A stretch of DNA of 64,000 bases from an uncultured Planctomycetia bacterium (lineage in GTDB: Bacteria > Omnitrophota > Gorgyraeia > Tantalellales > Tantalellaceae): the NCBI GenBank assembly GCA_964527765.1, contig CAZGQR010000002.1:135701-199700 (forward strand), given 5' to 3'. The notes under the pieces were generated by a model, which made no database searches, had not been told where the DNA came from, and saw nothing but the letters and a program-made list of their open reading frames with translations. A program made the translations under genes and the position numbers. Shown one piece after another: positions 6,001 through 56,402 of the stretch. Every line of letters starts with the position of its first letter. Position 1 is the stretch's first letter.

Positions 6001-9000
6001 GATAAGCTGGCCAGGTACATTTTACAGACCCTCGGAAGGACGCCGTTAAATGGGGAGGACATCGTTAAAGTAACGGCAGTACATACTCATGCGGCCGGGA
6101 GGGCGATAGAAAAATGCCTCAGCGGGCTTGTCGGGAAAGGTAAGCTTCTCCGGACGGGTTCGGGAATGTACCTGCCGGTGGTCAGGCGAAAATGCGCGAA
6201 TATGGGTCATCATGCGCCCAAGATCTCCCTTGACGGAACGCACTACGCCTTCGGTATTTCTGCCGGAGTGTCGGATGATGCGACCGTGTTCCTGGCTGCC
6301 GAGGCGTCGAACGGGAAAAAATTCCCCATTGCGGTAGTCAAGGACGGAAAGCCCGTCCTATGGTACAGAGTGATTCGCAGAGCGGATGGCGGGGTCGCGT
6401 CCTGCGGCTTGAGATCTTGCCGGTCGGAGATCGAGCTGCTGGGCCGGAAGGGAACCTTCTTTTTTGAGAACTGGCGGGCGAACACGAAGCGCGGAAAGGG
6501 AAGGGGCGTCGCCGGCAGGATCGGGGACACCGTGATCAAGGGAAAACCCGGTGAATATTTCAGCGGGATAGTATCCGACGGAAAGATCGTCCGTCTCGAT
6601 GTATGGCGAAATCCCTGCCATCGCCCGTATAAAGTCGTTGCAAGGCCGCAGGGCGACAAGGGGGTACCGGTATATAAGGTCGATAAGGACTCCGAGGCGT
6701 ATAAACGGGAATATACCACGAAAGAGGACAAGATCAGGTTCTGGGAAAGGGAGCTCTATGACTTGAGCGGGGCAAAGCGCAGAAAGGCCATCCAGCAGCT
6801 GGAAAAGCTGGGAGCGAGGTTCGACGGGATAAGAGCGCTGACCCTCGTGGATTGCCTTAATTCCAACTACGGAGTATCCGAGGGCTGCCGGTTGTTCGTC
6901 AAAACGTTCGGCGTTATCGTTGACGCGTGCATAAAAAGCGCGTGGCGGGACGAGCGATCACGCAAAGAGTTGCTGGAGCTATTATATATCACGGATTCGA
7001 GTGTGATCCGGAAAGCTTTCCGCGGGATCGCTTCCCGGGACCCTTCCTTATACGCGGATATGCTGGGCGCTTACACGAAAAAGTATTCCGCCGACTATAA
7101 AAATCGACACGACGCATATCATCTCGCGTTGTTAGAGGCGCTTCGCGCGGACCTGAAAGCGAAGAGATTCGACAGGTTCCCGGACCGGGCGCTGGACGTG
7201 TTGCGGGAATGGTATGAGCATAAATTACGCAGCCCCGGAAAAACCCCGCACATAAGGGCGAGGACAAAAGAATACCTGAAAACGATCGAGAATTTCCGAA
7301 AAAAGAGCAGAAATTTCAGAAGAAAAAATAAGATCCGGCTTTACAGCATAGACCCCTTTACGGCCGGTCTGGCCGCGGCCGGGGTAAGCTCCCTGTTCGG
7401 GAGCATCGGCGTCAGCATACTCAGCCCTCTGGTATTAACGGTCGCAGCCATAATATTCTCGTTCAGCTGGTTTGCCGCCGGGGGCGAGGATGCGGGCAAG
7501 GGCAAGAAGGAGGACGCGAAAGCGAAAGGGCCGCAGAAAGATTCCCCGCTGGCCCACTTGCCCGACCTGCACAAGAGGTTTGCCGTCAAAAAGAAAATAG
7601 GCGTAGGGGGGATGGGGGTGGTATATCTGGTCTTTGACGTGAACCTCCGGCGCGAAGCCGCGCTTAAGATACTGTTTGACCAGAGCGAAAGAGCGCGGGA
7701 AAGGTTCCGGAGGGAGATCAAGCGCCTGCGCAGCCTCAGGCACCCGAACATAGTCAAGGTACTGGGTTCCAGTTCCGTGCGGAAGGATTACAAAGGCCCG
7801 TCCTATATCGTAATGGAATACGTGGAGGGCGAGTCCCTGATGAAGTTTTACAGAAAAAGAAAGTATAACAACGAGAAAGCGCTGCTGGAATTGATATCCG
7901 ATATTCTCCTGCCCGTCGCCAAAGGCATCAGGTACATACACGGCAAGAATATAATCCACAGGGACTTGAAGCCGGACAATATACTCATTTCAAAGACGGG
8001 CGTTCCCAAGATCGCCGATTTTGGCATAGCCAAGCTCGGCGCCGGAGCTACCAGGTCCGATGAACATTCACTGACAAAGACCGGCTATGTCGTGGGGTCC
8101 CCCAGTTACATGGCTCCGGAGACTTTCAGGAACATGATCGAGACATGGATACCCGATGATATTGAATCCCTGCTGCCTGATAAGAAGAGTCCGGGATACA
8201 AGGAATGGAAGAAGAGCCCGCGATATAAACCGTATGAATATTTGAAAGAGTTAAGAAGGTTGGTAAATAAAAGGCAGTTCAAAAAGATGTCGGTACAGGC
8301 GGATATATATTCCCTGGGGCTGATCTTCTGCGAGACCTGTACCGGTAAGCTGCCGTTCAAGTATGAAGGGGACGACGGGATAAAGAAGCTTAGATCGAAA
8401 GTCTTTGAACGTATCCCGCTCGATGAGATAGCTCCCAAACTGTATTCCGAGTTCCGGAAGCTGATAGAAGACATGCTGGATCTGGACCCCAATAAGCGCC
8501 CCACATCAAAACAGCTGGTCCGGAAACTGGAAAGGATCGAGAAGAAGCTCAAGAAGCGCCTGGAAGAGAAGAAAAAACCCGTGTTTAAGACCGTTCTTAA
8601 ATACGGCCTGATCGCCGCGGGCATCGGGGCGACGGCGCTGGTCACGCATCTTCTCTTTCCGGGACTGATCCGTTCCATACTGAACTGGCTGGGTATCGGT
8701 TTTATCCTGACGGCGGGAACCATGGTAAGCGTGACCGGTGACGGCGGCCCCGGGACAGAAACCGAGGAGCTGTCACGCTCAAGCGTCAAGGATCTTCTTG
8801 CCCTGGAAAATGAATTAAGTGATAGCAGCGCGGAAGTCCGCGCGGATGCGATAGCGAAACTGGGTCCTGTTTATACCGCGTTCATCGGTCAGGGCAGGGA
8901 TGTCAGGGACCGCGTTTTCAACCTGGAGCAGAAACTGGCCGATAATCATCCGGCTGTCCGCGAGGCCGCCGGGTCGGCGCTGAGATCCATCTACGCGGCA

Positions 9001-12000
9001 TTAGCCGCCGAAACAAAAAGCATCAGGCTTTATGAATCCAGGTTAAGAAGAAGAATGGGCGCGGATGTTCGGGAGGTATCTGTCCGCAGGGCTGCGGTAA
9101 CGGCACTGGGTCTTCTTTACGCGGCATTGATCGACCACGGGAGGAAAATCGATGTTTCGATGCTGGAACAGAGGTTAAAGGATCCCGATATGCAGGTTTC
9201 CGAAGCCGCGGCGAACGCGTTAAGCTCTGTCTATGTGGCTCAGATCAACGCCAAAGGGGATGTCGATATATCCGCATTGGAACAAAGACTGAATGCCGAT
9301 CGTCACCTCGTCCGCGAAAAGGCAATAAAAGCCCTGGGGCCGGTCTACAGGGCCTTGATCGAAAAAGGGAAGCAGGTCGATCTATCCGATCTAAAGAAAA
9401 TGCTGGGGAATGCCTGCTACTGGCAGGTCCGCAGGGCCGCAACAACGGCGCTGGGCCTTGTTTACGTTTCCCTGATCGAACAGGGAAGAAAGGAAGAGAT
9501 CGATCTACCGCTGTTGAGGGAGATGCTGAATGATATAGACCTGGGCATTCGCAGGGTCGCGGTCAGCGCGGTGGGGGAAGTTTATGCTGCCCTGATCAGG
9601 CAGGGAGAAAAGGTTGATTTTTCCGATATCGAGGAGAAATTGAACAGGTATGACGAAGAGCTCCGCAGGCGCGCGGCAGAACAGCTCTCCCTTATCCATG
9701 ACGCGCTGGAGGGAAGAGATAGGGAAACCGATCTATCCTCTCCGGAGGAAACAGGCCCCGCCGGTATCGCGGGGATAGAGTCCGGCATCATCCTGGATCA
9801 GGATTATGCAAAATACCTATTCTGGACAAGAGAGAAGCTTCCCTACCACGAAGCGGTCATAGATGAATATCTGGCGTCCTCCCAGCCTCAGATATTCATA
9901 AGTGATCTGAAGCGCCGGGCCGAACGGTGCGTCCGGAAAGGGTTTGATCCCGAGGACCGGAGACAGCTGTGGCTTGCCTTTGTCGGAGCGAAGCTGAACG
10001 GGATAGACATTACGCATCATGATTTTACTGAACGGGTTGAAAGATTGGTCGAATTCGATGAAAAACACCCCGGTTATTTTTCCGACCTTTTCGGCAAGAA
10101 CAAGAAACTTAAAGCGATAGAGATAGCTGCCGGCGAGACACACGTCGTGGACACAAGCGAAGTCGATCATGCGGTCCTGGATGCCCATCTGGAAGAACTG
10201 TCAAGTATAAAGGAAAGGGTGGACAGTTGCCGGTGGCTTTCGGAAGATTTCCCGAAGCATAAATACTTCAACCTGCGAAACCTGTATTACCAGTTAAAAC
10301 GCGAGCAGGCGAGACAGGCGGGAGAGTACACCGGCGGAAAGTTTTTCATAATATTACCTTCGGAAGACCGGATGAGGGAAGAGATCGCCGGGAACAGGAA
10401 ACTTTTCTACAGGATCGTTTTCAAGGCGGCGTATCTCCGTCTGGGCGATAGGGAAATATCGGGAAATTGTCTTGAGCTGATGCGGGACCTGGTAATAAGC
10501 GATATTCTGTCGGATGATGCCATGAAAGGACAGCTTCATTCCTCAGATCCCGAGACCAGGGTAACCGCGCTTAAGGTCTTCTATGAGGATTACAAGAACC
10601 ACCTGCCGGATGCCTCGGGAATAGGCATGGAAAAAGTCAGGGGCCTGCAAAAAGCGCTGGATGAACTGTCCGGGGAAATATACGCCGAAATGGCCAAGAT
10701 AAAGATCGTCCGCCGGAAAAGGCGCGAGACCTATCGCCTGATCCCGCAAGGATTTTTAAGCGTCTTTCGCGGGAGAGCCGGCATTATCGACTGCTCCTTT
10801 GACGCGGAATATCACGGTTCAGCTTTTACCCGGGCGATGCATGAGGATACGGGTTATTATTTTGTTTATAACAAAAAGCTGAAGGGATACGTGGGGCTGT
10901 GCGAAGGCCTGACGGAAAAAGGCGAAAAGGTCCTGACCGTAGATACCATTAATTCTCCCTCCCTGGACGGCGAGGAGATGCTGATCAATCTGTTCGTGGA
11001 ATTGGAAGAGGCGGCCAGAGAGCTGGGATGCAAGGGGATCGCCCTGCCGGAGAACATGGTCCGCTCCTTTAATTTTGATAACAAATACACCATTTCCGGC
11101 ATGGATGCGTACAGGAAAGCCAGGCCCATAAAGGTGGTTCCCGTGCATTCGAGCAGCTGGAAACGGCTTGCCGATACATTCGGGAAAGATTCATATAATT
11201 CTATGGAAAGCGGCAGGTTCAAGCTGCTTGATCTTGATTCCCTGCGCCCTCCCGCTCCGGTCAGCAAGAGCTATGAAGACGGCGACATCGGGATAGAACA
11301 GGTAGATGCCCGGGGCTGGCCGGAAATAAAAGACGACATAATGAAGGTGGAAGAAGAGTCCTTTACCGGTCCCCTGAGACAGACCGAGGAGGATATCTCG
11401 GAGACCTTTGAGGACCCTGATTCCATTTGCCTGGTCCTGAAGGATAAGGGCGCAATAGTCGGTTACATGATGGGAGGTCCCCTGGAGGACTATTATTACC
11501 TGGCCGGAATAGAGGAAGACCCCGGCTATGGCGAAGAAAATACCGTTTATATCGAGTCCATTGCCCTGTTGCGGCCATATCAAAGGTCGGGATTAGGCAA
11601 AAAACTCAGAAATAAATTCCTTGATATTGCTCAGCAGAGAGGGTACCGGCAGGTCAGCGGCCATATAAGAGAGGAAGTGGCCCGGAGCAGGGGGGATAAC
11701 ATACTGGGCGCATTCGGGGAATGGCAGGGGACGGACACCACTTTTTGTTATTACAGTAACCCCATCAGATCGAAAAAGGCGGAGAAAAAGCACGCGCTGC
11801 GCCTGATCTCGGAACTCGTCACCAGATCGCAGGATCATGACTGGGAAGCGGCCGACCGCGCGGGGGAACTTCCCGACTTGAAAGGCCTTTTGCTGGGGGC
11901 GACCGACGGGCACGGAAGGATCACGTTCCGGCCGGTCAGGAACTATCCGTTCGAATGGGCCATGCTCGGTTCCGAGGAAAAGGGGTGGGAGGCTGTTGTT

Positions 12001-15000
12001 TCGGAAAGCGGTGTCCGGAACGGGCGTTTTGAATTTACCGTGAGATTTACCAAAGAGGGCAGAGAGCCCGTGAAGAAGGTCTTTCAGGTAGGTCCTTACA
12101 CAAGGGAACTGACAGGCCGCAATAAAGCGGAAGGAAAAACGCTTACGGTGCTGGATATCGACGACCGCCCCGGACTTAAAGCCGTTGCCGAACTCATTGC
12201 CAGGCCTCCCGGATATAACTGGGAGACCGCCGAAAATGACGGCAGGATCCCCGACCTGAAAGGCCTCCGGCTGGGGGCCGTGGACGGCCGCGGAAGGATC
12301 AATTTTTCTCCCGTCAAGGGTTATCCGTTCCAGTGGCACGTGCTGGGGTTCTACGAAGAAGGATGGGAAGCCGTTATCGTGGAAACTGAGGCGTGGAAAG
12401 AATATTTTCAGTTCAGTGTGGAGCTTACCAAGCCGGGCAGGGAACCCCTCAGAAAGGTCTTCCAGATAGGTTCCCTCACGAAGGATCTGTCCGGACAGTA
12501 TACGGAAAAGGGAAAAACCTGCAAGGTGTTGGATATTGACGACCGTCTCGGCCTTAGGGCCATTTCCGGGCTTATTACCAGACCGCAGGATTATGACTGG
12601 GGCTCCGCCGTGCGCGACGGCAGGCTTCCCGACCTGAGGGGCCTGCGGCTGGGAGTGACCGGAACACAAGGAAAAATCAGTTTCCATCCCGTTACGAATT
12701 ATTTATTCCAGTGGCATGTCCTCGGCTTTGATGAAGAAGGGTGGGAAGCGGTTATCGTGGGCAGCAGCGTGCATAACGGGCATTTTCAGTTTCTTGTAAA
12801 ACTTACCAGAGAGGGAAGAGAACCGATCCACAGGATATTCCAGATAGGCCCTTATGCCAGGATCATATACGGCCAGAACAGGGAGCGAAGAACGAAAAGG
12901 CACGTTCTGGATATCGTGAGCCTGCGGGCCGTGGAGCGATTGATGAATAAGGAGGAATATGTCAGGAAAAACGGGAAGGCGGCCTGGAATGAAAGGACGA
13001 ATGTTTACGAAGTTGCGTCCCCGGAAACTTTAGATCCCGTTGAGAGCGAGGAACTGGTGCAGAAAGTATCCCAGAATTTACTCGCAGTTATCGCATCTAT
13101 GACGGACGAGGAACGTGAAATAGTCTTGCGAATAGTAAGAAGAGATACGGGTCACAACATCGTTTCCGAGGGGTATGCGCCGGCAGATGTCCTGAACGTG
13201 AAGAGGAAAATAAACAGCGCGCTTAATCCTTTGCTTGATGAATACGGCCTGATCGGCAAGCACGCCGTCGTCAAGGGCATCCGGGCGGACGAGAAGACAG
13301 GAGAGATGACGGCCCGGATAAAGATCGTGGGTTCCGACGAAGAAGTGCCGCCCCTTATCCTGTCCCCCGGAGGAAAGCTGGATGTCCGCGCCTTGAAAAC
13401 GGCATTTGAGAGCATGGAAGAAGTGAAGTCAAAATACAACAAGGGAATGATCCTTTCCATGCTGGACCTGCTCGAAGGATCACCGCCCGAACTTTATACT
13501 TATGACGTTCTTGTGGAGGACCTTTTCGGTTTTGTTTCGGGCGAGCGCGATCTTATTGCCCTTCATGAAAGCGCAGCTTCCGACCCCATGGCCTTGTTCC
13601 ATGAGGCCGGTGAGTATCTTATAAAGAAAAAGATATTAAAGCTGAAACTGAGGCATGAAAGACTGGTGATCTCGACAGGTAAACGCGAGACGTTCACTCT
13701 CAACCTGGGCGGCGAGGCGCTGGCCGTTGCCAGGAAGAACACGGCCAGTCCCCACTATCTTTTCAGGGCTTTGCAGAGACAGATATTCAAGGAGAGGGAC
13801 GGGGATCTGACGGTAAGGATAAAGAACGAGCAGAAGAAAAAACTGTCGCATTCAACTATAAAAAATATTCTTATCATAGGGCAAAAACTGGATGACAGGG
13901 ACTGGCGCGTAGCCACGGCCGCGATCAAGACATTGGCTTCCATTTATATCTTCCTGATCAAGCAGGGCAAAGACGTTGACCTTGCCGCGTTTAAGCGGAA
14001 GATCAAGAATAAGGACTGGTACGTGCGCAAGGCCGCGTTCGCCGCGTTAAAACGCGTTTGCGACGCTCAGGCCGAGCAGGTAAAGGGTACCGATGAAGAG
14101 GCGCTCGGCCTTATCCGGGAATTCGAGCACACTTACCGGTGGCAGAATATCGAAACCGCACCCGAATCGATGGATGCCATGCTCATCAACATGTTTGAAT
14201 GGGGTCAGATGTCCCTGGCCGAGCTGGAAGGGAAAACCGGGAGCAATGATATGAAAGTCAGTGAAGCCGCGGCCAAAGCTTTGTGTTCCGTCTATATTAC
14301 CGCGTTTAACGAAGGCGGGATCCCCAGGTCTTACCTGGAGAGGCAGCTGAACGACAAGAACTGGTATCTCCGCAGAGCGGCGATGGCAGCGTTAAGCTCT
14401 ATTTATGCTGATCTGGTCAGGCAGGGAGAAAAGGTCGATCTGTCCCTTTTTGAAGAGGGGCTGGAACATGATTACTGGCGCTTTAAAGAAGGGCGCCCGT
14501 TACTGGATGCCGTTTACGTCAGTCTGGTCAGGGAAGGAAAAATGTCCTCGTCCGATATAGAACAGAAACTGGATCACAGGCAACTTCATATCCAGGAATC
14601 CGCGACAAAGGCATTGGGCCCTGCGTATATGATAGAAGTTAAGCAGGGAAGAGTGCCTTTGTCCGCCTTGAAGCAAAAATTGGATCACCATAAGGACTGG
14701 CGTGTCCGCAGGGCCGCGCTTTCGGCATTGGAACCGTTTTGCATCGATGCGATCGAGCAGGACGGAGTTCTCGACGATGATTATGAAAAACATCTGATCT
14801 GGCAGAAAGAAGGCTTCCCCTATCAGGAAGAGGTGTTCAGCCGGTTCCTGGCCTCCCCCCGGCCGGATGACCCGCGGCGTTTTATAGATTCCCTGTTCAG
14901 GCAGAGGATCCTTGAGGGCATGGAGAAGGATGTAATGCCCTGCCTGGTGAACGCGCTGATCGCCGTTTCGGAAAGGAAGGAAAAGGTCATCCTGGCCCTT

Positions 15001-15558
15001 GACATTGATCTCGGGGAAGGCCAGATAAACACCCTTCTTGAAAAGTTGATCAGGGTGATCCCCGCGCTTAAAGACAATAACGAGGACCTGAAAAGGTTCC
15101 TGGATAATCTGCATGTGATCAAGGGCACGGGCAGGGATCTCAGTCTCAGGCTTAATAACGTGACCGATCCTTCCAGGGGTTCCGCGAAGAAGGAAGACGT
15201 GATAATCGTGACCAAGGACTCGAACGCGGAGCATTTCAGGGATTTCAAGGGCGCGGCTACCATGGCTGTTGTTGATGACGGCGCGTTCCCGGAGACGGCT
15301 TACCTGCCGCTTCTGGAGATCATGCTGTTTGCGATCAGCAAGCACCTCGGGTGGGATAAGAAGGCCCTTCTCAAATATTACGGGATGATACCGAACGTGG
15401 TTTCCGTAGAAGATCTGAATCCCGGGGATTATGCCGGGCTGTTCGGCGGGGATGAGAGGCTTCTGGTGATAAGGCTCGTGCCGGACGCCGTGCAGTTCGA
15501 CAAGGAAGAGCTCAGGGAGATGATGGACAGCATAAAGGTCATGCTGGCCAGGGCGTAA
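1..15558 (+). CDS. Giant multidomain protein (>=5166 aa; first ATG at 58, but the frame is open with no stop back to nt 1, so probably 5'-truncated by the window). Domain order: N-terminal helical region / SF1B Upf1-like helicase / GNAT-1 / TM hairpin / ~1100 aa unknown / TM hairpin / Ser-Thr kinase / TM hairpin / HEAT array 1 / unknown / GNAT-2 / 3x tandem 126-aa repeats / unknown / HEAT array 2 / conserved C-terminal domain
   Basis: Single uninterrupted ORF in frame 1. Recognisable motifs: helicase Walker A HGPGGTGKTT, motif II VVIIDEGG, ITPYKAQ and a GSENKVIIWSLVRSN motif-VI-like stretch; GNAT RGIGRAL and QRSGLGKKL motifs; kinase IGVGGMGVVY / ALKIL / HRDLKPDNILI / DFGIAK / SYMAPE. Strong AGGAGG RBS of the next gene follows 50 nt after the stop. 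No ATG-proximal SD at 58, so 58 is probably an internal Met. Confidence 0.85.
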   Translation, partial: KALEKALDIYKPYLLVASYMTRSVIGGMIRHYKTCVTIENRFREGAFDKALSQIEKLETEGGLSPEVLSFIGKKAARIGDIQKEITSIKERFESGDLSLRSARNQARDMQKECPGYPDTKELFEYFEQKRIEVAGYLDGAGSSIELRRPDEAFSLIRKAMAIDKENKAMARPLVRIAELYIQGKDFDSARKCIDILIDVEGWRDDPTAEKLIVLIWELCRSGRYGDAIELSDRLFEKKISRWYKTKLRRIKSVAGASTILDDLDIHLAMIRNALEAEKAEEAIEQKILKQYRTRLIEYKKISPTKTGFRIDRFKHLKPEEVRKLFKIGDSFEVFGPLPDGDKSESNGPVVDVSFRVTAVGERGWVAFEMPPSALEKKEEFIRDIPRRGFIRKQPNIPFELQKSVLDDLKWKLWESLRAVDYEAIGKKAFFEPTTGHPIIDIVLGLKEAPKRKGSVSYGGEGPWDEWQRKAIASATDLSIPVTIIHGPGGTGKTTVTVEATRQLSGEIIRQFSKKKSRILITSQSNPAVDNIWKRAASKGLKFIRLAFKSSSIDTKVMRNWERRQKHLEDARKRYYGEEGAGPVYIGTNMGWANDPYVRNSAFYLEPDVVIIDEGGRSTPGETLYAISRIKPDGKVIIVGDHLQLRPHGFTREDVVRIKSALSYKERELERLYTEENLSKVTTSLFEKLCQRRDIDYHLLPVNRRSHPAITGFVNAFGYLRHGVKLLPRDWDKEKKEPCEKDIVTVIDYGDGKIHERLERDGQDRVLNGRIYNTREVNEVIAEIDRFLNMKHRGRPRYGPADITIITPYKAQIRAITEALKIKAIVNDLDEGVIADRKEAVAVLSDLPLRKISKRMFPHIVQDVKIASGMIEELIGKLKNNTRISPREMRIYARIIRNAALYNIRKKHGPRSVGYKDITSIRRVKLTAEGVEDEEEVMEGDEELDVATIDSIQGSENKVIIWSLVRSNRQNDIGFLGAHDGPNRNLVAAGRAEEYLTVIGDISHTLAWADYGLEKTNYSDLRKASIRQTAAAFRDGLEHCRANNTIIRTSTDRRTGRNSENDRPRSPLGGVHEGFLQLPMRLFFRSAAYLSGALLAGLTSLLFSHSAKDPAPIKKDIGEKDTAGYDRIESDPAKIDPARLTEALKEHLGFLMFHDKDARAQISKYLEDKKCLTAVTEDGEVAGCLIFTVDEEKLSARQMDIYVRCYQADRGIGRALWEEAKEYFARKGITKAEALCDRPVQRDFWEHIRENYGGPLEMIIRDRDEGAERFYSVYAFAPLAFLPFVTVVPGLSILILASTAAFVLLATLSSRGDLRRYEKSLFLSSFGNARGSTNDTDNIDMEMLYKASRPITIKDVGIPWAVFPKTGVMNKIEFRSIPCSVLDSSAAVYRDSKRDKYVIFIASLLLRKKHRSDIALYFALIDIFLVLHDGILERSGAFDPKRTNILASQGGFYREVVCAMLNGGMAEEFRIAARLETELSGREKASFRGEDVLSEGDREHSDMEKSVAGRSIINFIEWMKEPEVTVVDFSGEIKKAEKVYRPARTDMSARKHQKRMAFWSEHRQMIGRFIRGEYRDDPDRARILRKLDGAESLVFIKSGIVPFSRTRVRPPIKKGVRSFAGKENWLRIRTKIENGRLRIEYLLAGDPYFAHVSDSYEEGSETPLSLGKELIEWMTDKERPMPQSVLSIEADIKGRVHLGTFDGESMYLDLGKRFKETEGGLRRKVWIKAKVSRRDAKELAVYLRPDGPEIMRFRPIYKDASGKKLDRLEKRKDLILDMFSRDALVHWAGGGKVDMDSDIEFIWPVEKMRIVKLGDDMVASAGVDYEGDDILVRGKVNVPGEKRIEFCRPDGRQVPVQVRFYDEESGTLLNELSELRRRFASWEAGEDAPNPMVISGIFGNGFEIAEDVFVRIPKAERVKSGRYLVVFAQPGEYKGIKLYALNGQNAPLKFISTYYFHKGKRIKTGWDEEAELLSAEDESAIKEILCRCGYIAFLRESSFSADKLARYILQTLGRTPLNGEDIVKVTAVHTHAAGRAIEKCLSGLVGKGKLLRTGSGMYLPVVRRKCANMGHHAPKISLDGTHYAFGISAGVSDDATVFLAAEASNGKKFPIAVVKDGKPVLWYRVIRRADGGVASCGLRSCRSEIELLGRKGTFFFENWRANTKRGKGRGVAGRIGDTVIKGKPGEYFSGIVSDGKIVRLDVWRNPCHRPYKVVARPQGDKGVPVYKVDKDSEAYKREYTTKEDKIRFWERELYDLSGAKRRKAIQQLEKLGARFDGIRALTLVDCLNSNYGVSEGCRLFVKTFGVIVDACIKSAWRDERSRKELLELLYITDSSVIRKAFRGIASRDPSLYADMLGAYTKKYSADYKNRHDAYHLALLEALRADLKAKRFDRFPDRALDVLREWYEHKLRSPGKTPHIRARTKEYLKTIENFRKKSRNFRRKNKIRLYSIDPFTAGLAAAGVSSLFGSIGVSILSPLVLTVAAIIFSFSWFAAGGEDAGKGKKEDAKAKGPQKDSPLAHLPDLHKRFAVKKKIGVGGMGVVYLVFDVNLRREAALKILFDQSERARERFRREIKRLRSLRHPNIVKVLGSSSVRKDYKGPSYIVMEYVEGESLMKFYRKRKYNNEKALLELISDILLPVAKGIRYIHGKNIIHRDLKPDNILISKTGVPKIADFGIAKLGAGATRSDEHSLTKTGYVVGSPSYMAPETFRNMIETWIPDDIESLLPDKKSPGYKEWKKSPRYKPYEYLKELRRLVNKRQFKKMSVQADIYSLGLIFCETCTGKLPFKYEGDDGIKKLRSKVFERIPLDEIAPKLYSEFRKLIEDMLDLDPNKRPTSKQLVRKLERIEKKLKKRLEEKKKPVFKTVLKYGLIAAGIGATALVTHLLFPGLIRSILNWLGIGFILTAGTMVSVTGDGGPGTETEELSRSSVKDLLALENELSDSSAEVRADAIAKLGPVYTAFIGQGRDVRDRVFNLEQKLADNHPAVREAAGSALRSIYAALAAETKSIRLYESRLRRRMGADVREVSVRRAAVTALGLLYAALIDHGRKIDVSMLEQRLKDPDMQVSEAAANALSSVYVAQINAKGDVDISALEQRLNADRHLVREKAIKALGPVYRALIEKGKQVDLSDLKKMLGNACYWQVRRAATTALGLVYVSLIEQGRKEEIDLPLLREMLNDIDLGIRRVAVSAVGEVYAALIRQGEKVDFSDIEEKLNRYDEELRRRAAEQLSLIHDALEGRDRETDLSSPEETGPAGIAGIESGIILDQDYAKYLFWTREKLPYHEAVIDEYLASSQPQIFISDLKRRAERCVRKGFDPEDRRQLWLAFVGAKLNGIDITHHDFTERVERLVEFDEKHPGYFSDLFGKNKKLKAIEIAAGETHVVDTSEVDHAVLDAHLEELSSIKERVDSCRWLSEDFPKHKYFNLRNLYYQLKREQARQAGEYTGGKFFIILPSEDRMREEIAGNRKLFYRIVFKAAYLRLGDREISGNCLELMRDLVISDILSDDAMKGQLHSSDPETRVTALKVFYEDYKNHLPDASGIGMEKVRGLQKALDELSGEIYAEMAKIKIVRRKRRETYRLIPQGFLSVFRGRAGIIDCSFDAEYHGSAFTRAMHEDTGYYFVYNKKLKGYVGLCEGLTEKGEKVLTVDTINSPSLDGEEMLINLFVELEEAARELGCKGIALPENMVRSFNFDNKYTISGMDAYRKARPIKVVPVHSSSWKRLADTFGKDSYNSMESGRFKLLDLDSLRPPAPVSKSYEDGDIGIEQVDARGWPEIKDDIMKVEEESFTGPLRQTEEDISETFEDPDSICLVLKDKGAIVGYMMGGPLEDYYYLAGIEEDPGYGEENTVYIESIALLRPYQRSGLGKKLRNKFLDIAQQRGYRQVSGHIREEVARSRGDNILGAFGEWQGTDTTFCYYSNPIRSKKAEKKHALRLISELVTRSQDHDWEAADRAGELPDLKGLLLGATDGHGRITFRPVRNYPFEWAMLGSEEKGWEAVVSESGVRNGRFEFTVRFTKEGREPVKKVFQVGPYTRELTGRNKAEGKTLTVLDIDDRPGLKAVAELIARPPGYNWETAENDGRIPDLKGLRLGAVDGRGRINFSPVKGYPFQWHVLGFYEEGWEAVIVETEAWKEYFQFSVELTKPGREPLRKVFQIGSLTKDLSGQYTEKGKTCKVLDIDDRLGLRAISGLITRPQDYDWGSAVRDGRLPDLRGLRLGVTGTQGKISFHPVTNYLFQWHVLGFDEEGWEAVIVGSSVHNGHFQFLVKLTREGREPIHRIFQIGPYARIIYGQNRERRTKRHVLDIVSLRAVERLMNKEEYVRKNGKAAWNERTNVYEVASPETLDPVESEELVQKVSQNLLAVIASMTDEEREIVLRIVRRDTGHNIVSEGYAPADVLNVKRKINSALNPLLDEYGLIGKHAVVKGIRADEKTGEMTARIKIVGSDEEVPPLILSPGGKLDVRALKTAFESMEEVKSKYNKGMILSMLDLLEGSPPELYTYDVLVEDLFGFVSGERDLIALHESAASDPMALFHEAGEYLIKKKILKLKLRHERLVISTGKRETFTLNLGGEALAVARKNTASPHYLFRALQRQIFKERDGDLTVRIKNEQKKKLSHSTIKNILIIGQKLDDRDWRVATAAIKTLASIYIFLIKQGKDVDLAAFKRKIKNKDWYVRKAAFAALKRVCDAQAEQVKGTDEEALGLIREFEHTYRWQNIETAPESMDAMLINMFEWGQMSLAELEGKTGSNDMKVSEAAAKALCSVYITAFNEGGIPRSYLERQLNDKNWYLRRAAMAALSSIYADLVRQGEKVDLSLFEEGLEHDYWRFKEGRPLLDAVYVSLVREGKMSSSDIEQKLDHRQLHIQESATKALGPAYMIEVKQGRVPLSALKQKLDHHKDWRVRRAALSALEPFCIDAIEQDGVLDDDYEKHLIWQKEGFPYQEEVFSRFLASPRPDDPRRFIDSLFRQRILEGMEKDVMPCLVNALIAVSERKEKVILALDIDLGEGQINTLLEKLIRVIPALKDNNEDLKRFLDNLHVIKGTGRDLSLRLNNVTDPSRGSAKKEDVIIVTKDSNAEHFRDFKGAATMAVVDDGAFPETAYLPLLEIMLFAISKHLGWDKKALLKYYGMIPNVVSVEDLNPGDYAGLFGGDERLLVIRLVPDAVQFDKEELREMMDSIKVMLARA
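1390..3010 (+). other. Domain of giant ORF: SF1B (Upf1/DNA2/NAM7-like, AAA_11/AAA_12-type) helicase
   Basis: WQRKAIASA..IIHGPGGTGKTT (Walker A at ~1456-1482), DVVIIDEGG (~1819-1845), IIVGDHLQLRP, YNTREVNEV, ITIITPYKAQIRAI, IDSIQGSENKVIIWSLVRS, NRNLVAAGRAEEYLTVIGD. Order and spacing are typical of Upf1-like helicases. Confidence 0.75.
3410..3780 (+). other. Domain of giant ORF: GNAT-family N-acetyltransferase-like domain 1
   Basis: Beta-strand/acetyl-CoA loop pattern ..VAGCLIFTVDEE..IYVRCYQADRGIGRALWEEAKEYFARKGITKAEA.. (R/QxxGxG/A motif). Confidence 0.55.
7565..8545 (+). other. Domain of giant ORF: Hanks-type Ser/Thr protein kinase catalytic domain, flanked by predicted TM hairpins at ~7340-7490 and ~8590-8745
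   Basis: GxGxxG (IGVGGMGVVY), VAxK-like ALKIL, HRDLKPDN catalytic loop (~7958-7981), DFG (~8017-8025), APE (SYMAPE). Hydrophobic stretches LAAAGVSSLFGSIGVSILSPLVLTVAAIIFSFSWF and LIAAGIGATALVTHLLF / ILNWLGIGFILTAGTMVSV lie on either side. Confidence 0.8.
8800..9700 (+). repeat. Domain of giant ORF: HEAT-like repeat array 1 (about 8 units of ~38-40 aa: VRxAAxxALGxVYxALIxQGxxVDxSxLEQxL)
   Basis: Recurring VRADAIAKLGPVY / VREAAGSALRSIY / VRRAAVTALGLLY / VSEAAANALSSVY / VREKAIKALGPVY / VRRAATTALGLVY / IRRVAVSAVGEVY units. Confidence 0.7.
11290..11700 (+). other. Domain of giant ORF: GNAT-family acetyltransferase-like domain 2
   Basis: ..ICLVLKDKGAIVGYMMG..VYIESIALLRPYQRSGLGKKLRNKFLDIAQQRGYRQVSGH.. 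(canonical QxxGxG/A acetyl-CoA motif). Confidence 0.6.
11830..12945 (+). repeat. Three tandem in-frame repeats of ~378 nt / 126 aa in the giant ORF (unit: DWExA..DGRxPDLKGLRLGxxDGxGRIxFxPVxNYPFxWxVLGxxEEGWEAVIVxS..F.F.V.LTKxGREPxxKxFQxGxxTxxLxGxxxEKxKTxxVLDIDDRxGL)
   Basis: Units at ~11830-12215, 12216-12590 and 12591-12945; roughly 50-60% aa identity between units judged by eye; no family assignment possible. Confidence 0.8.
13860..14790 (+). repeat. Domain of giant ORF: HEAT-like repeat array 2
   Basis: DWRVATAAIKTLASIYIFLIKQGKDVDL.., WYVRKAAFAALKRV, VSEAAAKALCSVYITAFNEG, WYLRRAAMAALSSIYADLVRQGEKVDLS, WRVRRAALSALEPF. Same repeat flavour as array 1. Confidence 0.65.
14935..15555 (+). other. 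C-terminal ~205-aa domain of the giant ORF, homologous (~60% aa identity) to the C-terminus of the downstream 1450-aa protein; family unknown
   Basis: [92 protein letters not shown] aligns colinearly with 19340-19957 of the next gene. Both proteins end with ML-A-K/R-A stop. Confidence 0.8.
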
Positions 15559-15607
15559 TGCGGTACATGATCGAAGAATAATATTCAAATAAATAAGGAG
15601 GAGAAAA

Positions 15608-18600
15608 ATGAGCGGTTTGCGCAAAAATCTTGTAAGAAGCATTGTTTTTATAACGGTCATTTCAATGGTCTGGCAAGGTGTTGTCTGGGCCGATCCGGGT
15701 GTTATCCAGCCGGATAGACTGCAGGTCAGGACCCTTTTTAGTCTCCCGGACATGGAAGAGCGGGTCTCTCCCCTGGTTTCCGGTTATGTCGTCAAAAGGC
15801 TTGCTGAATTTGAACGGGACCTAACGAAGCAACACCCTTCGCGCATCGAAGATGCGGCTAAGGAACTTATTGTACAGATCAAGAAAGACGCTGATATTCC
15901 GGAAGATCTTTTGAAAATCGCTGCTTCCTCCGCGAAAGGGGAACTGGTAGTAATCCTGGGTTCACATGCGGTGAGATATTACAATCACAGAAGAGAGGAC
16001 ACGCAGGATCCGGGTCCCGGCCGCAAGGTTATCAAAGACATGAAAATAGGGGGATATTTTTCAAGGCAAATACTTGAGGTTTCCGGTAAGGAATACTTCT
16101 CGGGCGGTGCCGAGGTCTACTGGTCCGAATGGGAAGTCGTTAATTCTAACACATTGCGCGCCAGGGGCCGGAAGGGCATAATCGCGAAACGCGGCCCGGA
16201 CGGGAAATTCGATATAATGAGCGGCGGGCTGCCGGTCGATCCGGTCGATAAAGAAGTAGAGGATCATATCCAGGCCTTGAAAGATAAAAATAAGAATGTC
16301 CGCATAGCCGCGATAGGGAATTTAGGCAAAATAGGCGATGAAAAGGCGGTTCAGCCCCTTATCAAGGTCTTGAGGAGTGCGGATTGGACTGTCCGCGGAG
16401 CTGCGGCAGTAGCTTTAGGCAAAATAGGCGATGAAAGAGCAGTATTGCCTCTTATCCAAGCCTTAAAAGATACGACTGCGTATGTCCGTTCCGCCGCCGC
16501 GGAAGCTTTGGGAAAAATAGGCGATAAAAAAGCAGTTGAGCCGCTTATCCAAGTTGCTTTAAAGGACCAGGAAAAACGTGTCCGCGGAACCGCGGCGGAA
16601 GCTTTAGGCGCAATAAATGATGAAAGTGCTGTCCAGTCTCTTATCCTGGCTTCAAAAGATGAAGATCTACATATCTGCGAAGCCGCAACGAAAGCTTTAG
16701 GCAAAATGGGAGAGCCGTCGGTTGAGTTGCTCGTCCAGGCCTTAAAAGATCGGGATGAACGTGTCCGCAAAACCGCGGCAGAGGCTTTAGGTGAAATAAA
16801 TGATGAAAGAGCAGTTCCGCATCTTGTCCGGGCTTTAAAAGATACGGAGTGGATTGTCCGTGGAAATGCAGCGATAGCTTTAGGTGAAATAGGTGACGAA
16901 AACGCGGTCCCGCTTCTTATCCGGACTTTAAGAGATGAAGATTCGTATGTCCGCTTTACTGCGGTGCATGCCTTGGGGCAAATAAGCGATGAAAGAGCAG
17001 TTAAACCTCTTATCCGGGCTTTAGAAGATGAAGATTTAGATGTCCGTGAAGCCGCAGCGGAAGCCTTGGGTAAGATCGGTAAACCGGCGATTGAGCTGCT
17101 TATCCAGGCTTTAACAAAAGATGAAAGTAAGAGTGTCCGCGCAGGTGCGGCGGAAGCCTTAGGCAAAATAGGCGATAAAAGCACGGTCCGGTTTCTGGCC
17201 CAGGCTTTAATAAAAGATGAAAATGAGCGTGTCCGCGAAGCCGCAGCGAAGGCCTTAGGCGAGGTGGGCGATAAAGAAGTAGCCGGGCTTCTGGTTCAAG
17301 TCCTTATCAAAAACGATGAAGACCCAGATGTTCGCAAAGCTGCGGTAGAAGCTTTAGGTAGGATAGGCGATGAAAAGGCAGTTCTGTCTCTTATCCGAAT
17401 TTTTAATGACAAGAGCATGGTGGGGTACATAGGGCGTGTTCCCGAAGCCATAATAAGATCCTTAGGCGAAATAGGCGGTGAAAAAGCGGCCGAGTTTCTT
17501 ATTCAGCTTTTGAAAGATGAAGATTATTCTGCTCGTATAATCGCGGCAGAAGCCTTGGGCAAAATAGGTGATGATAAAGCGACCCAGGTTCTTACCCGAA
17601 CTTCAAAACAGGATAAAGATATGTATGTCCGCCGAGCCGCAGCGGAAGCTCTGAAGGCAATACGTAATAAGGCCGCGGCAGCGGTAGAATACTTCTCAAG
17701 CGGTGCCGAGGTCAACTGGTCCGAATGGGAAGCCGTTGATTCTAATACGCTGCGCGCCAAAGGCCAGAAGGGCATAATCGCGAAACGCGGCCTGGACGGG
17801 AAATTCGATATAATGAGCGGCGGGCTTTTTGCTGATATCACCGCTTCGGATAACGAACCGGAAAATAATGAGCTAAACATTGCGAAGATCGTTCCTTCGG
17901 AAACTACCTGTCTTGGTAAGCCCACGGTGAGGCTTGATGTTGAGTTATTGGGAGGCGCGAAGGGACACTTCGTCGTTCCGGCCGGGACCTCAACAGGCGA
18001 GGACGAAGCCAGGACAGTGGGCGTTGAAAAAGCAGTGAAGAACCTGGCCGGGATCCATACTGAAGTCACGGATAGAGGATTGAAAGCCGATCAGCTGACG
18101 GATATTGCCCGGGTAATGCTGGAAATGGGCAAGGATAAACTGGGCGCTGAAGCAACCCTGTCTTATCAGATGGCTTCGGCCTGGGCTGCGGCCCGCCAGA
18201 GAGGTTTTGAGCCCTATGAATTTATCCGGGAGATCGCTCCTGATATTGCTTCCAGATCCGTTCCCAAAACGAAAATACAATATAACATCACCAACGGAGG
18301 GGAACATGCCGAAAATGATCTGAACATGCAGGAATTCATGGTTGTTCCTGTAGGCAGATCCACGGCGGAAGCGAACCGGATGTGTGATGAGATAGACAGG
18401 CAACTGGGGCTTATTTACCGGAGCCTGGGATTAAGCGCCGATCCCGATGATAAGGGAGTGGGAGAAAAACGCGGCAAGGAAGGCGGTTACAAGATCGCGG
18501 ACCTGACCAGCGAGAGATTAAAGGAGATCTACGCGAATCCCCCCGAAAAGAGCTTTGAATATCTGAACGTGGCCGAGTTAAAGAAACGCGGCAATATCGG

Positions 18601-19960
18601 TGTCCACGACTTTGTCCTGGAATGCATGGTCGCCGCCGTTAAAAACGCCGGTTACGTACCGTCGACTTCCGGGGAGATCGGGACCGTGGCTATTGCCCTG
18701 GACCCGGCTACCAGTTCCATGGTGGTCGAAGGACACAAGGACCTTTATCATTATGAAGGTGCGCAGATCGGCTCAAAAGATCTGGCCGGCATATTCGAAA
18801 GATGGGTTGCAAGATACCCCATAACTTCCATCGAGGACGGCATGGGTGAAAATGACTGGGACGGCTGGATGCGCCTTGTCGATAAAGTCGGCGACAAAGT
18901 CCTGTTGATCGGCGATGACAGTCTTGTGACCCAGGCGGCCCGCTTGACAAAGTTCATCGAGCTGCTCAGGGAGAAAGGGTATGTTGATAAAAAGACCGGT
19001 AAGGTTACCAGGAAGATCGGCATCCTGATCAAATTGAACCAGAATGGTTTTCTGATCACCGGCATAAATGATCCCGGTAAAGGTTACTTGGGAACTTTAG
19101 AGGTTATTCGCCTGGCGAAACGCCATGGGATCGAGGTTGTAGTATCTCATCGATCCAAGGAAGCGGAACCCGGGGAAAGGGAAGTCTCTATCGCTGAGCT
19201 TGCGGCCGGGGTGGATGCCTATGCCCTGAAGTCCGGCGATCATGTTCAGGGGATCCGAGCTGTCAAAGAGGACAGACTGGCCGAGATCGACAGGAGAGAA
19301 CGGGAACTTTTCGTGAAAAAGGTAATGGATAACGCCGAGACCGTGATACCCGGTCTTGTGGATGCGTTGATAACCGCTTCGGAAAAAGATAAAAAGGTCG
19401 TTCTGGCATTCGATACCGACCTTGGGGGAGGGCGGATGAACGTTCTGCTCGGAGAACTGATCGAGGCCATCTCCGGGCTTAAGGATAATAATGAAGATCT
19501 GAAGAGGTTCTTGGCCAATCTGTATATGATCAAAGGCAAAGGTAAGGATCTTGGTTCGAGGCTGGGCAATATAACCGATCCTTCCAAAGGTTCCGTGAAG
19601 AAAGAGAACGTTATAGTCGTAGCCAAGGGCTCAAATGAGGAATATTTCAAAAGCCTTAAAGGCACAGCTACCATGGCTATTGTCGACGACAGCGCGTTCC
19701 CGGAAACAGCTCACTTACCCTTGCTGGATGTTATGCTTCTGGCGGTCGGCAGTTATCTTGGGTGGAGCGAGAACAGACTGTATGAGATTTACAGCAGCAT
19801 TCCGGACGTTGAGTCTCTCAGTCTTGAGGAATATGTTAAATTGTGCAAGAAAGATCAAAGATCCCTGATAATAAAACTTGTGCCCAATGCCGTGCAGCTT
19901 GAGACAGAAAAGCGCAGGGAGATAATAGACGCAATAAAAGATATGCTTGCCAAGGCATAG
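15608..19960 (+). CDS. 1450-aa secreted/periplasmic (signal peptide) protein: N-terminal unknown region / 47-aa module / about 15 PBS-lyase-type HEAT repeats / second copy of the 47-aa module / complete enolase-like domain / shared C-terminal domain
   Basis: AAGGAGG RBS 8 nt upstream of the ATG; N-terminal [28 protein letters not shown] signal-like sequence; HEAT units [27 protein letters not shown]; enolase motifs (see the domain feature below). Confidence 0.85.
16091..16240 (+). repeat. Copy 1 of a ~150-bp intragenic direct repeat (about 90% nt identity to 17686-17835) encoding [47 protein letters not shown]
   Basis: Compared by eye with copy 2; long identical runs, e.g. gggcataatcgcgaaacgcggcc and gacgggaaattcgatataatgagcggcgggct. 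Confidence 0.8.
16255..17680 (+). repeat. HEAT repeat array (PBS lyase / HEAT_2 type, about 15 units of 31 aa) within the 1450-aa protein
   Basis: [73 protein letters not shown] and further units with a 93-nt period. Confidence 0.85.
17686..17835 (+). repeat. Copy 2 of the ~150-bp intragenic direct repeat ([47 protein letters not shown])
   Basis: See copy 1. The two copies bracket the HEAT array. Confidence 0.8.
17870..19200 (+). other. Enolase-like domain (full-length, ~440 aa) embedded in the 1450-aa protein; catalytic and metal-binding residues appear conserved
   Basis: Colinear with enolase: [12 protein letters not shown] (cf. PSGASTGxxEA), [23 protein letters not shown] (cf. INGGxHAxNxxDxQEFMI), [10 protein letters not shown] (cf. 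GDEGG), AIALDPATS (cf. AMDxAASE), [17 protein letters not shown] (cf. PIVSIEDxxxExDWxG), [10 protein letters not shown] (cf. LVGDDLxVT), ILIKLNQNG (cf. ILIKxNQIG), [13 protein letters not shown] (cf. ISHRSGETED, with an insertion), ALKSGD (cf. IKTG). Confidence 0.8.
19340..19957 (+). other. C-terminal ~205-aa domain of the 1450-aa protein, homologous to the giant-ORF C-terminus
   Basis: [112 protein letters not shown]. Confidence 0.8.
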
Positions 19961-25794: not shown

Positions 25795-27042
25795 CTACCT
25801 TAATTTGGCGTAGAACGAAAGGTTTTTTTCGGCTATTTTTGTCCAGCAGAATTCTTTCCTGGCCAGCTTAAAGCCGTTTTTCGCGATCTTTCTTCTGAAG
25901 GTGTAATTTTGGTTGAGCACGTGAAACGCCCAGCTCAGGTCTTTTTTGTTGAAAGGATTGACGATCAGGCAGTCGTGTTTGTTCTTAAGATATTTCCTGA
26001 TCCCCGCGCGGCTGCTGATTATTGCAGGCGTCCCGCAGGCCAGGGCCTCGGCGGCCGTCATGCCGAAGGGTTCGAATTTTGAGGGAAGTACGAAGAACTT
26101 GGCCCTGCGGTAGTAAGAGGGCATAAGTTTGTCCTTTATATGTTTTGTGAAAAACACCCTGTTCTTGATCTGCGACGAAACGATTATCTTCTGAAGGTCC
26201 TTTTTTAGTTTCTTTTCCTTGGGAATGGGGTTCTTGGAGCCGCCCCCTATGACAAGGAACAGGTCTTTTTCCTTTCTGACTATTTCCGCGAATGCCCGAA
26301 GGAGATAGTCGAGCCCCTTGTTGGTGTCGAACCTTCCGGTCCAGAACGCGTAGTTCTGCGGAACATCGACCCTTTTTTCCCTTTCTCTTTTTTTAAGAGG
26401 GCGGAATATTTCCGTATTCACGCCCGCCGGGATCACGATGTAGTTCTTGCCCCTGTAATTGTAGAATTTTCTGGAACGTTTTATCATCTCCGAGCTTGTC
26501 ATGACCAGGGCACGGACTTTCCTGAAGATCATTCTTTCGCGTTTGATCCTTTCCTTGAACCTGTAAAGTTTTTCCATCTCACCGGGTTTTCCGCCCATCT
26601 GTTCCTTTTTCCATGCTCCGAGAGAGTGGAAAGTGTGGACAAAAAAGCCGTTAAGGCGTTCGGTGAGCTTCATCGCGACGTATCCGGCGTCCCAGTAATG
26701 TGAGTGGAAGATGTCGTATTCCAGCCCTTCTTTTTTGATGAAACGTTCCATGTTCCTGGCGAACGTGTTCAGGCAGGGGAAGATCTTCTCTTTCGGGATG
26801 AATTTATTCCCGCCGCAGGGGATCCTTATGATCCGCACGTTCCTGCACACCCGCTCCATGGTTTTTCTGTTCTGGAACCTGCGCGTGTATATATCGACTT
26901 TTATCCCTTTTTTTGCGAGCGCCTTGGAAAGTTCCAGGACGTAAGTCACCTGTCCGCCGGTATCCGTTTTTCCCAAAATGGGCTTTGGATCAACATAACC
27001 ATGCGTGCTGAGCATGCAGATACTTTTTATATCCTTCTTCAT
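25795..27042 (-). CDS. GT4 glycosyltransferase with a sucrose-phosphate-synthase-like N-terminal domain (SPS-like sugar-phosphate synthase; acceptor unknown)
   Basis: CMLSTHGYVDPKPILGKTDTGGQVTYVLELSKALAKKG (cf. SPS GxDTGGQVxYvxEL); C-terminal GT-B half with E..E features (FEPFGMTAAEALACGTP). Confidence 0.7.
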   Translation of the reverse strand: MKKDIKSICMLSTHGYVDPKPILGKTDTGGQVTYVLELSKALAKKGIKVDIYTRRFQNRKTMERVCRNVRIIRIPCGGNKFIPKEKIFPCLNTFARNMERFIKKEGLEYDIFHSHYWDAGYVAMKLTERLNGFFVHTFHSLGAWKKEQMGGKPGEMEKLYRFKERIKRERMIFRKVRALVMTSSEMIKRSRKFYNYRGKNYIVIPAGVNTEIFRPLKKREREKRVDVPQNYAFWTGRFDTNKGLDYLLRAFAEIVRKEKDLFLVIGGGSKNPIPKEKKLKKDLQKIIVSSQIKNRVFFTKHIKDKLMPSYYRRAKFFVLPSKFEPFGMTAAEALACGTPAIISSRAGIRKYLKNKHDCLIVNPFNKKDLSWAFHVLNQNYTFRRKIAKNGFKLARKEFCWTKIAEKNLSFYAKLR

Positions 27043-28900: not shown

Positions 28901-28916
28901 GGGAAAGGAGCACAAA

Positions 28917-29840: not shown

Positions 29841-29899
29841 CTTGCTGCAAAAATGCGGCCGGGATCAGGGTCCCGGCCGCCTGCTGTGATGATCTGCCC

Positions 29900-54773: not shown

Positions 54774-56402
<1,629 letters not shown>

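Follow-up and report, generated by a model that had tools for sequence, protein, structure and literature searches.

A HEAT-repeat protein of the Omnitrophota carrying a predicted exported enolase of a divergent, long-form clade

Introduction

Glycolysis is a textbook cytoplasmic pathway, and the Omnitrophota are a phylum of ultra-small, host-dependent bacteria. The closest described systems are the Archaeovorin giants of this phylum, in which HEAT is the commonest domain and is predicted to be extracellular; they carry TIM, GPI, FBPase, PGM, FBA, and PPDK domains that are likewise predicted to be extracellular, with an explicit caveat on topology (West-Roberts et al. 2023, bioRxiv 10.1101/2023.11.21.568195). 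A further preprint describes “multi-enzyme metabolic cluster” giants with HEAT/adaptin scaffolding in the Omnitrophota and reports a signal peptide or transmembrane helices in 94% of long Omnitrophota proteins (bioRxiv 10.64898/2026.06.07.730766). Enolase is not named in the domain lists consulted in either source (10.1101/2023.11.21.568195 and 10.64898/2026.06.07.730766). Here we describe a gene from a 64-kb stretch of contig CAZGQR010000002.1 (herein the window, meaning the whole stretch of DNA analyzed) that encodes a 1,450-aa protein joining an array of HEAT repeats to a complete enolase domain (herein HEAT-enolase). The window belongs to the Omnitrophota: its LeuRS is 65 to 82% identical to the listed homologs, and all of the named ones are from Candidatus Omnitrophota.

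HEAT-enolase and the 5,166-aa giant protein encoded immediately upstream resemble the Archaeovorin type in phylum, in the combination of HEAT repeats with central-carbon enzyme domains, and in signal-peptide and transmembrane content, and the giant also has GNAT domains. Both fall far short of the at least 30,000 aa of that type, and the enolase has a gene of its own, its link to the giant being a C-terminal module present in both proteins. The Archaeovorin signature of glycosyltransferase, methyltransferase, glycosyl hydrolase, peptidase, and NUDIX domains is absent from the giant, whose domains are limited to helicase, GNAT, kinase, and HEAT. Giants of the Omnitrophota with HEAT repeats and glycolytic domains are already described; the direct fusion of HEAT repeats to enolase is what the window adds.

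Thermotoga maritima has a PGK-TIM fusion of glycolytic enzymes, and enolase itself is well known as a surface-exposed moonlighting protein in Gram-positive pathogens and as a member of the RNase E degradosome. Those enolases likewise stand outside the usual soluble cytoplasmic context and are scaffold-bound; in those cases the housekeeping enzyme is unmodified and has no signal peptide, whereas here a divergent, dedicated paralog would bring its own signal and scaffold domains. TPI-GAPDH fusions are targeted to stramenopile mitochondria (PMC3527533). Such fusions, like those of the Omnitrophota family, place consecutive glycolytic enzymes in one polypeptide, and the stramenopile ones are also N-terminally targeted, relocating part of glycolysis. 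They join two canonical enzymes inside cells or organelles, whereas the Omnitrophota family combines up to five or more enzymes of divergent clades with Sec-type signals and non-enzymatic modules, and the window protein has HEAT repeats in place of a second enzyme. Secreted, experimentally localized hexokinases are reported for microsporidia (PMC6460350), where, likewise in a host-dependent organism, a glycolytic enzyme that is normally cytosolic has gained a signal peptide; there the organism is a eukaryotic parasite and a single enzyme was localized by experiment, whereas export of the Omnitrophota enolase is a prediction.

Results

Architecture of HEAT-Enolase

The gene occupies positions 15608..19960 of the forward strand (1,450 codons plus stop; all features of the gene are on this strand) and follows a strong ribosome-binding site, AAGGAGGAG (15595-15603), read off the sequence 5 nt upstream of the ATG. 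A signal-peptide-like N terminus (residues 1 through 28; 15608..15691) leads into an N-terminal domain of ~130 aa (residues 29 through 161; 15692..16090) that had no match in a Pfam scan and is 60 to 62% identical to the same region of the closest homolog (P0001). The HEAT array (residues about 215 through 690; 16250..17677) is flanked by two copies of a 47-aa module, copy 1 on the left (residues 162 through 208; 16091..16231), which contains DIMSGGL, and copy 2 on the right (residues 694 through 740; 17687..17827). The array is recognized by Pfam (HEAT_2, E = 3e-153; HEAT_PBS, 5e-75) and consists of 15 PBS-lyase-type repeats with a period of 30 to 36 aa. It is followed by a complete enolase domain with an N-terminal capping domain and a TIM barrel (residues 754 through 1236; 17867..19315) and by a 214-aa α/β domain, C-terminal domain 1 (CTD1; residues 1237 through 1450; 19316..19957), which is common to the giant protein and to an enolase-PGK fusion elsewhere (L014). 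The original prediction, of a signal-peptide-like N terminus, about 15 HEAT repeats, an enolase, and a C-terminal domain shared with the giant, is thus borne out by the open reading frame, Pfam, and alignments. It had placed the enolase at residues ~755 to 1195; the start was right, and the domain runs further than that end.

The Enolase Domain Retains a Complete Active Site

Both halves of the domain pass their Pfam cut-offs (Enolase_N, residues 770 through 873, E = 7e-11, 42.9 bits versus 35; Enolase_C, residues 997 through 1228, E = 6e-38, 131 bits versus 21.5), and the nearest solved structures to the protein are enolases (4yws, E = 3e-43). The mapping of residues used yeast enolase 1, whose sequence matches PDB 1ebg exactly. 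Each of the 14 catalytic and ligand positions, covering both Mg ions, the substrate, and the acid/base pair, is kept (yeast = window): the metal ligands D246 = D1032, E295 = E1076 (with the adjacent D296 = D1077), and D320 = D1103 together with S39 = S795; the acid/base residues K345 = K1142 and E211 = E958; and the substrate-binding H159 = H900, Q167/E168 = Q908/E909, H373/R374/S375 = H1181/R1182/S1183, and K396 = K1208. The same positions are invariant in 35 domains, namely the window domain, 20 further ones of clade A in which they are covered, and 14 of clade B (both clades are defined below). An AlphaFold2 model of residues 754 through 1236 is of high confidence (predicted local distance difference test [pLDDT] 89.9; predicted template-modeling score [pTM] 0.91), and Foldseek aligns it with enolase crystal structures in the PDB over their full length (E ~1e-31, TM-score 0.81 to 0.86, root-mean-square deviation 2.4 to 4 Å). 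The proposal of a complete domain with an intact set of catalytic residues therefore holds, with every position named in it retained and six more added by the yeast alignment, and the structure-based comparison agrees.

Relative to canonical enolase (EC 4.2.1.11; PF03952 plus PF00113; TIGR01060), the domain shares the two-domain fold and the active-site residues. It differs in being only about 35% identical, in scoring below the TIGR01060 cut-off, and in lying within a 1,450-aa protein with a signal-peptide-like N terminus, HEAT repeats, and CTD1, which in relatives at least is an extra paralog. The domain lacks the DSRGNPT motif and 11 aa following the S39 loop (S795). Insertions add about 38 aa in total after E958 (the largest), 14 aa before K1142, and 11 aa after the NQ motif; the SGETED loop reads SKEAEPGE; and the KTGAPxRSER segment is replaced (KSGDHVQ where the canonical enzyme has KTGAPAR). 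The SGETED change had been noted correctly in the original prediction but as the only alteration, which it is not.

Selection on the domain is purifying. Against the ortholog in locus L001, the ratio of nonsynonymous to synonymous substitution rates (dN/dS) is lowest in the enolase domain (0.064) and reaches 0.21 in the N-terminal domain and 0.19 in CTD1, values that are approximate because dS exceeds 1.

HEAT-Enolase Belongs to a Divergent, Long-Form Clade

A word-indexed search returned 11 proteins of 593 to 1,031 aa that are 39 to 76% identical, those with a named taxon all being Candidatus Omnitrophota; ordinary enolases in the same search are only 33 to 35% identical. In a profile search of 1.84 billion cluster representatives, about 15 family members (counted as clusters at 50% identity) score above 430 bits, many of them 1,600 to 3,200 aa long, and the rest score 254 bits or less. 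A neighbor-joining tree resolves two separate divergent clades. Clade A comprises the window protein, P0001-P0011, and P0122-P0129 and is ~35% identical to canonical enolases; clade B comprises P0134, P0136, and others and is ~38% identical to them. Identity between the two clades is about 35%; among canonical enolases it averages 61%. Clade A is rare, with 17 loci in 16 of 185,579 Genome Taxonomy Database (GTDB) species genomes (one genome per species), nearly all labeled Omnitrophota; the window's own genome is absent from the matching GTDB representatives, whose best identity is 70%. A secreted, HEAT-scaffolded enolase had been called highly unusual, and the HEAT fusion is indeed unique (see below); as a long-form enolase, the protein is no isolated oddity but a member of a recurrent, nearly Omnitrophota-specific clade.

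Nearly every clade-A enolase is either fused to other oversized central-carbon enzymes (TIM, PGK, GAPDH, iPGM, FBA, and PPDK) or encoded beside them. In locus L002, a 4,283-aa open reading frame with four GAPDH domains, PGK, and iPGM in pathway order ends 32 nt upstream of the enolase gene (coordinates 1-9969 and 10001-12712 of the locus), so that a single megaprotein and the enolase cover lower glycolysis. Locus L003 has PPDK, a 1,894-aa GPI-TIM-PGK fusion, the enolase, a 1,677-aa protein without assignment, and a 900-aa iPGM, and locus L005 has FBA, enolase, and PGK. Fusions within one polypeptide include TIM-enolase (P0004), (TIM-)PGK-enolase (P0123-P0125), transaldolase-aminotransferase-transketolase-enolase (P0126), and PPDK-TIM-FBA-enolase (P0127), and clade B adds TIM-PGK-enolase and enolase-PEPCK. 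Another likeness to the Archaeovorin type is the presence of PilZ genes downstream in two relatives (L004 and L005).

Two variations on the domain content were also seen. Clade-A enolase domains are duplicated in tandem at two loci (P0122, residues 1041 through 1544 and 1555 through 2057; L019:10001-13054), and P0132 pairs a degenerate enolase domain (S39E, H159V, E168A, and K345M) with an intact canonical one.

A Predicted N-Terminal Export Signal Is Conserved in the Family

Signal peptides were judged manually by the classical n/h/c criteria, with an AXA-type cleavage site. The window protein begins with an n-region of three positive charges (R5, K6, and R10), followed by a 20-aa hydrophobic core (residues 8 through 27), its sole hydrophobic segment, and V-W-A|D at −3/−1, in line with the signal-peptide-like N terminus first proposed. 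Among the complete N termini of the family, all 31 have a hydrophobic h-region and 30 have at least one K or R ahead of it. From this layout, export of the window protein is moderately likely.

A further motif, [LFM]R (typically xNLRP; herein the LR(P) motif), lies within 28 residues after the core in 19 of the 31 N termini against a background of 16% (binomial P = 2e-8, a value that treats related sequences as independent), and it could be an unrecognized sorting or processing signal. Its form is mostly D/N-x-L-R-P; the window protein (15608-15760) has the variant DRLQVR. N termini entered for the motif are those of P0002, P0006, P0123, P0134, P0136, P0180, and P0207 and those at L003:4302, L003:17752, and L005:6176.

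The HEAT Array Is a Lineage-Specific Insertion

The closest homolog, P0001 (872 aa), is syntenic. Its locus, L001, has a giant gene with CTD1 upstream and, as in the window, trpE, trpG, ispH, a polyprenyl synthase, and a SpoIIE-type phosphatase downstream. P0001 shares the signal-peptide-like N terminus and is 60% identical to the window protein in the N-terminal domain, 85% in the enolase, and 60% in CTD1; its N-terminal domain runs directly into the enolase, with no HEAT array between. As P0001 lacks the whole module-HEAT-module block (about 580 aa), the block is a lineage-specific insertion. Neither HEAT repeats nor the 47-aa module was found in other clade members, in a seed search of 30 loci or in 27 Pfam-scanned proteins, and among the members scanned, the direct HEAT-enolase fusion is unique to the window protein.

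The two module copies that bracket the array are 79% identical in amino acid and 85% in nucleotide sequence, and the module may be a recombination-prone linker. The window protein thus shows domain shuffling in action, with a HEAT array between duplicated linker modules and an array-free gene available for comparison. Each copy (16091-16231 and 17687-17827) begins with EYFSGG; YFSGG also ends a ~350-aa “LPAPGTM...NPFxFDF” N-terminal domain of the long-form proteins P0007, P0124-P0126, P0129, and P0203.

The Giant Neighbor and the Shared C-Terminal Modules

The upstream gene (58..15558, +; 5,166 aa) ends 49 nt before HEAT-enolase, and the two are probably co-transcribed. A promoter and terminator scan of the gap found no terminator-like site, with counts equal to shuffled expectation and hence uninformative. 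The pairing of a giant gene with the enolase gene is kept in L001 and L002. On the other side, the next gene downstream is trpE, in convergent orientation.

Besides CTD1, the giant protein carries an SF1 helicase (AAA_11/AAA_12), a Ser/Thr kinase, a pair of GNAT domains, and two HEAT arrays, together with three transmembrane hairpins at residues 1250 through 1291, 2437 through 2476, and 2849 through 2892 and one doubtful segment at 1393 through 1413. Its ortholog in L001 aligns in patches only, which suggests fast evolution. A threefold repeat of ~100 aa lies at residues ~3900 to 4290.

CTD1 forms the C-terminal end of the giant (residues 4946 through 5166; 14893..15555, +), and these last 221 aa are 55% identical to residues 1234 through 1450 of HEAT-enolase (E = 1e-67), so that the domain is indeed common to the two proteins, as had been claimed. 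It also terminates the enolase-PGK fusion, which comes from another metagenome-assembled genome (L014:3012-3644). For CTD1 homologs, the word-indexed search gave one fragment only (P0121), and a JGI metagenome scan with the CTD1 alignment gave none. The AlphaFold2 model of the domain is poor (pLDDT 59).

The C termini of long-form proteins fall into four recurrent types irrespective of the enzyme carried: CTD1 ends in ..ML-A-x-A and CTD2 in ..EFMxKV, CTD3 is GGIDFR.., and CTD4 is GGIDLN... CTD2 is common to iPGM, PGK, and enolase proteins from different genomes. Carriers entered for these modules are the window protein, the giant protein, L014, P0006, P0009, P0134 and others, P0124-P0126, and P0007/P0008/P0129/P0203. 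Comparison of CTD1 with CTD2 and with PPDK-type tails by hhalign found no significant relationship. A literature search found no description of the enolase clades, the LR(P) motif, or the CTD modules, nor do these appear in the searched passages of the two preprints on Omnitrophota giants.

The Long Form Accompanies Ordinary Glycolytic Enzymes

No second enolase lies within the 64-kb window. It does encode, as context, a stand-alone iPGM of 542 aa without a signal peptide (54774..56402, +; Pfam Metalloenzyme, 233 bits; iPGM_N, 226 bits), which indicates that the genome keeps glycolytic enzymes of normal format. Three metagenome contigs (L033-L035) carry both forms, with a canonical 423-aa enolase lying 3.9 kb downstream of a clade-A protein. 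In L033, the canonical eno (10887-12158) scores 680 bits against TIGR01060 and has all canonical motifs, while the long form (4040-6997) scores 200 bits, so that, in that lineage at least, the long form is a second paralog beside the canonical enzyme. This co-occurrence and the normal iPGM of the window both argue that the long form is an extra paralog.

Other sugar-related genes of the window lie farther downstream. A GH130 mannoside phosphorylase and an 861-aa glycogen/starch phosphorylase (27830-32374), 8 to 12 kb from HEAT-enolase, are sugar-phosphate-producing and look ordinary and cytoplasmic. On the reverse strand (25795-27698), a GT4/sucrose-synthase-like and a PRK/uridine-kinase-like open reading frame overlap by 4 nt; they form a single 632-aa gene in L001 (15765-17663).

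Discussion

The gene and its architecture, the intact active site and fold of the enolase domain, purifying selection, the family context, and the shared CTD1 are established. The best explanation of them, to which we give an even chance, is that HEAT-enolase is an active enolase of the divergent long-form clade that is exported and tethered by its HEAT array and CTD1 to an envelope assembly of the giant protein. The clade represents glycolytic enzymes built as oversized proteins, with a signal-peptide-like N terminus, fused or clustered in pathway order and sharing a few C-terminal modules; in the window lineage, the enolase stands alone, having gained a 15-repeat HEAT array between two copies of the 47-aa module. 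A Sec-type signal would move the protein out of the cytoplasm, the HEAT solenoid and CTD1 would attach it to the envelope assembly of the co-transcribed, membrane-anchored giant that ends in the same CTD1, and the tethered enzyme would convert 2-phosphoglycerate (2-PG) to phosphoenolpyruvate (PEP), or the reverse, as one station of an Archaeovorin-type scaffolded machine that processes sugar phosphates. Of these steps, interconversion of 2-PG and PEP is likely, and docking through HEAT and CTD1 is a plausible hypothesis.

Several observations weigh against this explanation. The giant has no signal peptide, and if only its hairpins are real, its helicase, kinase, GNAT, and CTD1 domains would be cytoplasmic, on the opposite side of the membrane from an exported enolase. 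In fold searches, CTD1 gave weak SIS- and receiver-like matches only, which are not known docking modules. The giant is also not a glycolytic megaprotein, unlike the neighbors in most relatives. PGK, GAPDH, and PPDK, the partners of the clade, need ADP or ATP, NAD, and Pi, which a normal periplasm lacks. Finally, the window domain scores 209 to 215 bits against the NCBIfam equivalog TIGR01060, below the 300-bit cut-off, and its insertions and deletion lie near active-site loops, so that kinetics or specificity may differ. Some of these points would fit better if the same active enolase were not exported, its N-terminal hydrophobic segment being an uncleaved membrane tether or a misprediction. 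With paired hairpins and no signal peptide, the ATP- and acetyl-CoA-dependent domains of the giant, and hence probably its CTD1, are most simply cytoplasmic; the glycolytic partners in relatives require nucleotides and NAD; and West-Roberts et al. caution that placing the glycolytic domains outside the cell may reflect an error of topology prediction (10.1101/2023.11.21.568195). Yet the N terminus follows the classical n-h-c order, its positive charges preceding the h-region and V-W-A standing at −3/−1, which predicts an N-in/C-out orientation or cleavage, the feature is kept in every one of the family N termini, and ordinary cytoplasmic copies co-exist with the long forms (the iPGM of the window and the eno of L033), which is more easily explained if the long forms serve another compartment. 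We consider a non-exported enzyme unlikely, while giving it some weight. The divergence of the domain could instead mark a neofunctionalized paralog, an enolase-fold enzyme with a changed substrate or reaction that acts on another 2-hydroxy- or phospho-acid outside the cell. An identity of about 35% to canonical enolases that are themselves about 61% identical, the score below the equivalog cut-off, and clade-specific changes near mobile active-site loops (the 11-aa deletion after S795, SKEAEPGE, and KSGDHVQ) would suit such a change. However, all ligands of the carboxylate, the phosphate, and the two Mg ions are invariant, as are the two acid/base catalysts, and fusions and clusters set the domain between iPGM and PPDK or PEPCK, where conversion of 2-PG to PEP is needed; a new reaction seems to us improbable.

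The original prediction had left a catalytic and a purely binding module as open alternatives, but these are not evenly balanced. Enolases do have moonlighting roles on bacterial surfaces and in RNA degradosomes, HEAT repeats serve as scaffolds for binding, and the partner giant has an SF1 helicase domain, so that a non-catalytic module binding host surface proteins or the giant, for example, can be imagined. Such a module would not keep 14 catalytic residues invariant across clades that are 35 to 60% identical, nor a dN/dS of 0.06; the moonlighting enolases that are known lack a signal peptide, being the canonical cytoplasmic enzyme; and the family context is metabolic rather than RNA-related, for which reason a degradosome-like pairing of enolase with the helicase-bearing giant was ranked low. 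Catalysis is favored because the 14 residues are invariant over 35 diverged domains, dN/dS is 0.06 against about 0.2 on the flanks, and family members are fused to iPGM, PPDK, and PEPCK, which makes a non-catalytic scaffold very improbable. Lower still we would place the view that the protein is simply the housekeeping enolase of the organism with lineage-specific extensions. An intact active site and the lack of another enolase within the window are compatible with it; the signal-peptide-like N terminus, the strong divergence, the clade member and canonical eno found on one contig, and the normal iPGM of the window are not what it leads one to expect. The clade was moreover found in only the 17 GTDB loci and about 15 clusters given above, whereas canonical enolase (K01689, strict threshold) is present in 176 of 176 complete Omnitrophota genomes according to a 2026 preprint.

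A wider possibility, which we consider unlikely, is that some Omnitrophota run a second complete glycolytic or gluconeogenic pathway that operates beyond the cytoplasm, whether in the periplasm, in a surface coat, or at the interface with prey. All steps from GPI to PPDK or PEPCK would be performed by Sec-signal megaproteins of divergent clades, addressed by xNLRP and assembled through CTD1-4. The family itself amounts to a second, divergent series of glycolytic enzymes in the Omnitrophota, enolase included, that is export-tagged, fused, and scaffolded. At 870 to 1,450 aa, its long-form proteins are expressible, compared with the tens of thousands of residues in the giants, and this size makes the activity of the domains, the side of the membrane on which they lie, and the role of the terminal modules in assembly or sorting directly testable. 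Were the wider possibility true, HEAT-enolase would be a detachable station of an extracellular pathway, docked on a giant membrane protein, and an ultra-small predator or parasite could turn the sugar phosphates of its prey into PEP, pyruvate, and ATP outside its own cell.

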